The notes: generated by a model from the sequence alone, not told the origin. A DNA stretch of 64,000 nt from Escherichia coli (GCF_045037415.1 NZ_CP173438.1), one strand, 5' to 3'. Shown: positions 23,988-24,341, numbered from the stretch's first letter. Translations and numbers: made by a program.

Positions 23988-24008
23988 AGTGATAATATTT
24001 TATCTTTT

Positions 24009-24027
24009 TATGGCTATGATAGCCATA
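24009..24027. promoter_or_regulatory. Candidate operator: 19-bp perfect palindrome upstream of the HTH / split-HipA operon
   Basis: tatggctat-g-atagccata, 22-40 nt upstream of the HTH start codon (23987) on the promoter side; flanked by a 23-bp direct repeat (see findings). Confidence 0.45.
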
Positions 24028-24341
24028 ATATTAGCATTTATTGGATTGAACGCACCTGCAAAGCGTTCAAGATTACGAAAGTGATGATATTTTATCTTTT
24101 TATATATAAAAACAATAAAATAACAGCACATTCATATATAACATATTGTTTTTATTATCATACAAGTGAGACGATCGCTGTATTGATGCTTTTGTCGTGT
24201 TTTACGCGTAAAAAACATGACACGAACTACCAGCGGCGAGGCTGGGGGCCAGGTATGGGTACTGCGAACTTTTTATAAAAGGAATAGCAAGAGATTTATG
24301 GAGGGAACGTCTGTTTCTGCAGTTTTTATCACTTAAAAGCA

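Follow-up and report, generated by a model that had tools for sequence, protein, structure and literature searches.

A gene pair of the hipB-hipA type is located beside rplI in Escherichia coli (GCF_045037415.1, NZ_CP173438.1), and the DNA immediately upstream of its hipB start codon contains a near-perfect direct repeat, a palindrome, and a second inverted repeat. The question raised by this locus is whether these repeats control the operon or are the traces of an insertion. The original prediction had offered both possibilities, i.e., a set of operators for cooperative HipB-type repression, or a duplication scar at the junction of the accessory segment next to the rplI terminator. All coordinates refer to the window, which is the whole stretch of 64,000 nucleotides that was analyzed. 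The hipB gene (23496-23987, minus strand) encodes a 163-aa XRE-type HTH antitoxin/repressor (Pfam HTH_31, E = 6.6e-11), and its ATG occupies 23987-23985 on the minus strand. A total of 2361 HipB homologues were found at E ≤ 1e-5, and the annotated start codon was confirmed because the N-terminus is invariant across the homologues. The HipB family has a variable linker of approximately 50 aa that is followed by a conserved C-terminal motif, which may represent a kinase-binding or degradation tail. The best solved match was PDB 9u9g, "XRE family transcriptional regulator, HipB" (E = 5e-31 over HipB residues 1-105).

The direct repeat was found where it had been described, with gtgataatattttatctttttat at 23989-24011 and gtgatgatattttatctttttat at 24081-24103; there is one mismatch between the two copies, whose starts are separated by 92 bp, and one nucleotide lies between the first copy and the hipB ATG. 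The repeat proved to be longer by one base, extending over 24 nt with an identity of 23/24 (23988-24011 and 24080-24103). The palindrome reported at 24009-24027 was likewise present, and a repeat search extended it to a perfect palindrome of 10 + 1 + 10 nt (24008-24028; TTATGGCTAT-G-ATAGCCATAA). The inverted repeat TTGAACGC-N9-GCGTTCAA (24046-24070), with its arms at 24046-24053 and 24063-24070, was also present as described. For a chance test, the 348-bp intergenic stretch was shuffled 1000 times with its dinucleotides preserved. When up to one mismatch was allowed, the longest direct repeat in the shuffled sequences had a mean length of 10.8 nt and was in no case longer than 17 nt, compared with the 24 nt that were observed, and a palindrome arm of at least 10 nt occurred in only 5 of the 1000 shuffles. 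A chance origin of the direct repeat and the palindrome is unlikely. The second inverted repeat was not significant on its own, because 73 of the 1000 shuffles contained one with arms of 8 bp and a loop of 4-12 nt. Tandem Repeats Finder detected no tandem array in the region. Unlike MITE or REP-like dispersed repeats, which are present in many copies per genome, the 148-bp region occurred at a single site in each of 1041 E. coli genomes, with an identity of at least 99% in 748 of these.

Judged from the sequence, the two copies of the direct repeat are two of four conserved boxes that precede the hipB-hipA operon. The earlier description had captured boxes B and B' in the form of the repeat, and had missed boxes A and A', which are their inverted partners. 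Box B (23989-24004, plus strand; GTGATAATATTTTATC on that strand), which scored 20.1 bits against a position weight matrix (PWM) of the box, is oriented opposite to the operon, and a single nucleotide separates it from the hipB ATG. The first repeat copy (23988-24011) is built around this box and additionally includes 7 nt of spacer and 1 flanking nt. A 17-bp spacer (24005-24021, minus strand) connects box B to box A (24022-24037, minus strand; ATGCTAATATTATGGC in the operon sense; 21.5 bits). The A-tract of this spacer, ATAAAAA in the operon sense, adjoins box B and belongs to the 24-nt direct repeat. Box A contains an extended -10-like sequence, TGnTAATAT, with the TG at 24036-24035 and the hexamer at 24033-24028. 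The proximal pair spans 24037-23989, and the distal pair is located 92 bp upstream, at -142/-109, with a 33-bp geometry like that of the proximal pair. Box B' (24081-24096; GTGATGATATTTTATC on the plus strand; 16.4 bits) is the core of the second repeat copy (24080-24103), which again includes 7 nt of spacer and 1 flanking nt. Its partner at 33 bp is box A' (24114-24129, minus strand; GTGCTGTTATTTTATT in the operon sense; 14.6 bits), which is degenerate in Escherichia and was paired by the repeat search with both copies of the direct repeat as an inverted match. Relative to the hipB ATG, the boxes cover -142 to -2. All four (14.6-21.5 bits) fall within 141 bp, and only two other matches of at least 14 bits were found in the 64 kb. 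These isolated matches (18136-18151 and 15001-15016; 19.4 and 15.7 bits, respectively) are both inside coding DNA, in the accessory cluster that precedes the FAD-oxidoreductase gene; neither has a partner at 33 bp, and chance probably accounts for them.

The same arrangement was recovered from other genomes. Loci were found by protein similarity only; a scan of one genome per species yielded 80 loci, and the comparison set comprised 81 loci with a homologous hipB from at least 15 genera of Gamma- and Betaproteobacteria. These included loci from Serratia, Erwinia, Atlantibacter, Pluralibacter, Azotobacter, Azomonas, Stenotrophomonas, and Pseudomonas, as well as from Burkholderia, Paraburkholderia, Achromobacter, Alcaligenes, Cupriavidus, Ramlibacter, and several uncultured Betaproteobacteria. 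Apart from the common box architecture, the regions upstream of hipB could not be aligned across loci. The boxes conform to a 16-bp consensus, rTGCyAwTATTyTGGC, which is AT-cored and imperfectly symmetric. The symmetry is a pseudo-symmetry only, which combines TGC...GCA with an AATATT core at an offset of 1 bp, and a perfect 5-4-5 dyad is seen in box B of E. coli (GATAA-N4-TTATC). Relative to the ATG, the start of box A is at -50/-49 in 67 of 77 loci, and that of the inverted box B is at -17/-16 in 68 of 72. The distance from the start of A to that of B is 33 bp in 69 of 70 loci, which indicates that the length of the spacer is fixed. The box cores contained 1.4-1.8 bits per position, compared with approximately 0-0.3 bits in the 28 nt that precede box A, and spacer positions s12-s16 were A-rich across loci (0.5-1.2 bits), with approximately 1 bit in the A-tract beside box B. 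When the PWM, which was built from the proximal boxes, was scanned further upstream, extra boxes above the 95th percentile of shuffled controls were detected in 66 of 80 loci. Exactly four boxes, in the form of two (+,-) pairs that each have the 33-bp geometry, were present in 51 of the 81 loci, and in these the second A'/B' pair was located 67-156 bp upstream of the proximal pair, from start to start. In Salmonella, for example, the boxes are found at -150, -117, -50, and -17. Single boxes without a partner occurred in nine loci. In three loci, from Azotobacter, Azomonas, and Burkholderia, an overlapping box-like sequence, TGGCTAATATTGGTCA, was observed in the proximal spacer at an offset of 12 nt from box A, and it may be a fifth site.

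It is quite likely that the region is a four-operator autoregulatory region of the hipB-hipA toxin-antitoxin operon on the minus strand. The sites are present in several copies, four in the window, with a geometry common to those 51 loci, and they are located directly upstream of the operon, where they overlap its putative promoter or start region. The boxes are read as HipB operators because HipB is the only DNA-binding protein of the module, and because there are precedents in other Hip modules. The proposal of a HipB-type operator set has strong comparative support from the motif and its fixed geometry, which are conserved upstream of homologous hipB genes in many genera; the cooperative binding of HipB itself is a prediction from these patterns. 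From them we infer that the boxes are HipB operators that act cooperatively, as well as the position of the promoter and a role for HipA. An XRE-type HipB dimer would occupy each box, and boxes that are 33 bp apart (approximately three helical turns) would be filled cooperatively; this spacing, together with the A-tract, suggests cooperative binding on one face of bent DNA. With the proximal pair filled, RNA polymerase and/or the initiation of translation would be blocked, and the distal pair would serve as an auxiliary operator for stronger repression, probably in a HipA-dependent higher-order complex. Any regulation in this strain would be exerted by HipB alone, because hipA is frameshifted.

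The putative promoter is assigned from a single feature, the extended -10-like match in box A. A simple scan found no sigma-70 promoter with both hexamers on the operon strand, the weak match that it returned being on the opposite strand only (24131-24158), and no conserved -35 element was found upstream of box A across loci. The enterobacterial version has no Shine-Dalgarno sequence, and for this reason a leaderless transcript that starts from the ATG, with a -10 element inside box B, is a possible alternative. It could also be argued that the conserved TGnTAWTAT cores are not operators at all, but RNA polymerase elements of two tandem or divergent promoters, given that box A, and box B on the opposite strand, match an extended -10 and that AT-rich -10 elements are often conserved. 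However, the conservation extends beyond the -10 to the TGC at positions 1-3, the TGGC at positions 12-15, and the AA upstream, and the motif recurs in inverted form at exactly 33 bp and then again in a second pair. Furthermore, the -10 hexamer in box A' of E. coli reads TGTTAT, in which the second base, a critical position, is a G. For box A the two readings are not true alternatives, since promoter and operator functions overlap in classical systems. A set of duplicated promoters in place of operators is thus considered very improbable.

The inverted arrangement of A and B, with B ending at the start codon, would also be compatible with a dual DNA/RNA element or a pure RNA element. In the RNA form, a transcript that begins upstream of A would fold its 5'-UTR into a hairpin; the 3' arm of this hairpin would end at the start codon and make the translation initiation region inaccessible. 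With G-U pairs counted, the complementarity of A and B amounts to 83%, in a sharp register (30-60% when slid), and U-G on the sense strand accounts for many of the positions that do not form Watson-Crick pairs. One Pseudomonas locus folds into a 13-bp A/B stem (-21 kcal/mol, z = -3.1) in a hairpin that ends at the AUG. On the other hand, positions 13 and 14 are unpaired in approximately 60% of the sequences, and this mismatch is itself conserved. The predicted fold of the E. coli sequence is the local palindrome and not the A/B pairing, the single boxes of nine loci have no partner with which to pair, and no promoter upstream of box A is conserved. The covariation would be equally expected from two copies of one protein-binding motif. 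No Rfam family matched the region, and a permissive threshold gave sub-threshold hits on the rplI terminator hairpin only. An RNA element is therefore regarded as improbable, and the boxes are preferably read as protein-binding sites.

The position of the repeats within the accessory DNA bears on the second proposal, in which the repeat is a functionless by-product of insertion or recombination beside the rplI terminator. Of 5426 complete E. coli genomes, 5425 matched the region, and 1046 of the 5426 (approximately 19%) contained the module together with the entire intergenic region. The sampled genomes without the module (approximately 4380 of the 5425 matching) matched only from query position 436/437, i.e., window position 24335/6, rightwards. 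The junction between accessory and core DNA is thus located at 24335/6, inside the U-tail of the rplI intrinsic terminator (24341-24367, minus strand, from terminator prediction), next to rplI itself (24838-24389, minus strand), and the alignment with E. coli T16R agrees with this position. Both repeat copies lie within accessory DNA, 232-347 bp from the junction, with the distal copy approximately 230 bp away, and they do not flank the inserted segment as the two parts of a target-site duplication would. The reading as a junction scar was dropped because both copies are well inside the accessory DNA. The accessory nature of the segment, and the identity of 23/24 between B and B', which includes 7 nt of spacer and is far above that in Salmonella and Serratia, are in keeping with a by-product of this kind, and the latter suggests a homogenization or duplication in the ancestor of Escherichia. 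In contrast, the boxes occur at equal distances from hipB in unrelated contexts in many genera, and the region is single-copy in each genome. A scar as the whole explanation is extremely improbable. A search of a plasmid collection gave a single match, to an 834-kb E. coli record, which indicates that the region is not plasmid-borne.

Several genomes showed rearrangements around this site. In E. coli KE51, an IS1 element abuts the hipB start in the equivalent of window 23983-24340, so that the similarity ends 4 nt from the ATG. The hipBA genes and the neighboring accessory genes are absent from this strain, which instead contains IS1, a truncated TetR-family gene, and then ytfB, and the four-box region is left orphaned beside rplI. 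Comparison of T16R with window positions of approximately 20800-24335 revealed a mosaic accessory segment, in which three TRAP-transporter genes replace the MFS transporter and hipBA of the window, downstream of a common FAD-dependent oxidoreductase cluster. In E. coli CH4794, a transposase of ISVsa5 (IS4-like) was annotated within the match to the module and divided it in two.

Within Escherichia, the proximal and distal pairs differ in their conservation. No variation was seen in boxes A and B among ten E. coli strains, and box B is also unchanged in E. albertii, which has the module at the same chromosomal site as in the window with a HipB that is 93% identical. The polymorphisms among the ten strains are mostly in the distal pair, and one affects the central base of the palindrome. 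Box B' varies among E. coli strains and falls below the threshold in E. albertii. Between E. coli and E. albertii, the proximal composite diverges by 6% (box B 0/16, box A 1/16), the distal composite by 16%, and the DNA between the pairs, which is the fastest-evolving segment, by 26%. The distal pair may be losing its function in Escherichia, because it is degenerate and polymorphic there. E. albertii retains 21/24 of the direct repeat. The 23/24 identity of B and B' is specific to Escherichia, whereas B and B' of Salmonella and Serratia have only the motif in common; this identity probably reflects a local homogenization in the ancestor of Escherichia that was superimposed on an older four-box design. 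The 230 bp upstream of the boxes (24105-24335) showed no homology outside Escherichia.

The palindrome and the second inverted repeat are likewise specific to Escherichia or E. coli and are not conserved. The palindrome is restricted to Escherichia, and the spacers of Salmonella and Serratia have none. In E. albertii, its two innermost base pairs are broken by changes that are not compensatory. The palindrome was therefore rejected as a conserved operator. Many Pseudomonas loci show a weak TGGC-N7-GCCA tendency at the corresponding positions, although this is not general. What remains of the palindrome as an operator element is its left part (24022-24028), which is the 3' end of box A and is conserved as such; the rest of it is spacer, and the palindrome as a whole is not conserved. 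The inverted repeat TTGAACGC/GCGTTCAA, which is located in the DNA that separates the operator pairs, is largely lost in E. albertii, where its arms carry four differences, only one of them compensatory. It was rejected as a functional element, being neither significant in the shuffles nor conserved, and it is probably incidental.

The downstream gene had been described as a split HipA. The hipA gene of the window (22226-23493, minus strand) comprises two open reading frames of 168 aa (23493-22987) and 253 aa (22987-22226; HipA_C, E = 8e-48) that meet at TAATG, and PGAP annotates both as one "frameshifted" hipA. Alignment with the intact genes of E. albertii and Salmonella located a 1-nt deletion at nt 505 of the gene (approximately 22989), which creates the TAATG, and the second reading frame starts at a native Met codon. 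The intact gene encodes 422 aa in E. albertii, at the same site as in the window, and 423 aa in Salmonella. A full-length hipA in a single frame was present in 61 of 80 related loci, with intact lengths of 418-423 aa. The split HipA is in fact a lineage-specific 1-nt deletion allele of an intact 422-aa gene. A HipBST-like tripartite system with a split kinase was rejected, since hipA is intact in other loci and the E. coli lesions differ from one another. In the PDB, the window kinase matched only HipT chains (best E = 2e-8) and not K-12 HipA, and among Pfam domains it matched only HipA_C.

Different lesions were found in other E. coli strains: a G inserted after nt 555 in MS1266, a 1-nt deletion at nt 1076 in KKo009, and a 1-nt deletion at nt 248 in E2348/69, which also has a frameshift in hipB. 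The gene is intact in the E. coli strains Z0117EC0036 and 95-3322. At least four different frameshifts occur across E. coli lineages. The dN/dS values against E. albertii were low (0.10 and 0.06), which fits a recent and independent inactivation of hipA. These results suggest a repeated, independent loss of the toxin in E. coli, in which hipB and the proximal operator stay intact. Two near-identical Pseudomonas genomes (loci L096 and L095, the 9u9g locus) differ in that hipA is called as two open reading frames of 189 and 246 aa in one and is a single gene of 418 aa in the other, and this appears to be another toxin frameshift.

The state of hipA is associated with the distal operator pair. 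Two pairs were present in 46 of the 61 loci with full-length hipA, compared with none of the nine loci without hipA (Fisher p = 2e-5, not corrected for phylogeny). In these nine loci, hipA is absent or reduced to a remnant. The association with full-length hipA hints that HipA is involved at the distal pair. A more elaborate arrangement can be envisaged, in which the two 49-bp composites form a HipA-dependent looped repression complex, and in which the A/B pair might add an RNA hairpin that sequesters the start codon or mark a leaderless transcript. This proposal is prompted by the fact that the distal pair is kept only with an intact kinase gene and is decaying in Escherichia, where hipA is repeatedly frameshifted; we regard it as tentative and rather unlikely. 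If it were true, the operator architecture would report the status of the toxin, and the looped complex together with an RNA role of the A/B pair would amount to a two-level control by DNA and RNA that is not described for Hip modules.

The four-operator reading can be compared with the known Hip systems. In E. coli K-12, the hipBA operators are bound by a dimer of the XRE-type HipB and overlap the promoter, and the autorepression is enhanced by HipA. These operators, O1-O4, were reportedly defined by Black et al. in 1994 as TATCC-N8-GGATA. With up to two mismatches, this consensus had 23 matches in the window, and none of these was located within 23988-24335. The four K-12 operators are arranged as two closer pairs, with gaps of 10, 21, and 10 bp (PMC4150777). 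The window resembles K-12 in having four repeated sites upstream of hipB-hipA that are grouped as two pairs, but its pairs consist of inverted asymmetric boxes with a fixed gap of 17 bp and an inter-pair distance of 67-156 bp. The proteins also differ: the classical K-12 HipB has 88 aa and is devoid of the conserved C-terminal tail that is seen in the HipB family of the window, whereas the window protein has 163 aa, with a long linker and this tail. In Shewanella oneidensis, GTGTA-N6-TACAC is present in four copies with 34-bp gaps (PMC4150777). The hipAB locus of this species and that of the window both have four operators of approximately 16 bp that start with GTG, with neighbors that are about three helical turns apart, and one operator that is very near or inside the hipB start region. 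However, the Shewanella sites are perfect palindromes that are evenly spaced and equivalent, whereas the sites described here are asymmetric boxes that form two inverted pairs, and the distance between the pairs varies.

The hipBST operon of Legionella has three HipB operators that were verified by EMSA (PMC10653801); conservation is highest at the promoter-proximal operator, which is nearly invariant, and lower at the distal ones. Operators O1-O3 of Legionella pneumophila resemble the boxes in that several copies of a motif are present upstream of hipB, the proximal copy hardly changes from species to species, the distal copies show asymmetry and greater variation, and the motif is unlike the K-12 type. 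They differ in the number of sites (three), the even spacing with gaps of 53 bp, and the sequence, and in belonging to a tripartite HipB/HipS/HipT system, whereas the system of the window is bipartite with a broken hipA. The closest relative of known structure, PDB 9u9g from Pseudomonas (153 aa), is encoded at a locus that has its own box A (-47) and distal box (-98), with the gene for a 418-aa HipA_C kinase downstream; this locus is of a -47/-14 sub-type with an GAAAAAATAC-type box, unlike the window. A search for 9u9g, for the box motif or architecture, and for Pseudomonas HipB returned nothing relevant in the searchable literature, and the paper behind 9u9g may describe the motif. Papers on hipBA of Acidovorax and Klebsiella michiganensis showed or assumed the binding of HipB to its promoter and defined no operator.

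The region is most likely an ordinary multi-operator autoregulatory region of a type II toxin-antitoxin operon, with a motif that differs from those of K-12, Shewanella, and Legionella. The tempting misreading of hipA as a split kinase is corrected, in that the window carries a frameshift allele. The module is found in approximately 19% of the complete E. coli genomes, including the ST131 and EPEC E2348/69 lineages. The biology is otherwise that expected for the autoregulation of such an operon, and the analysis provides a predicted operator motif and architecture for a widespread, little-studied HipB/HipA subfamily whose kinase is distant from K-12 HipA.
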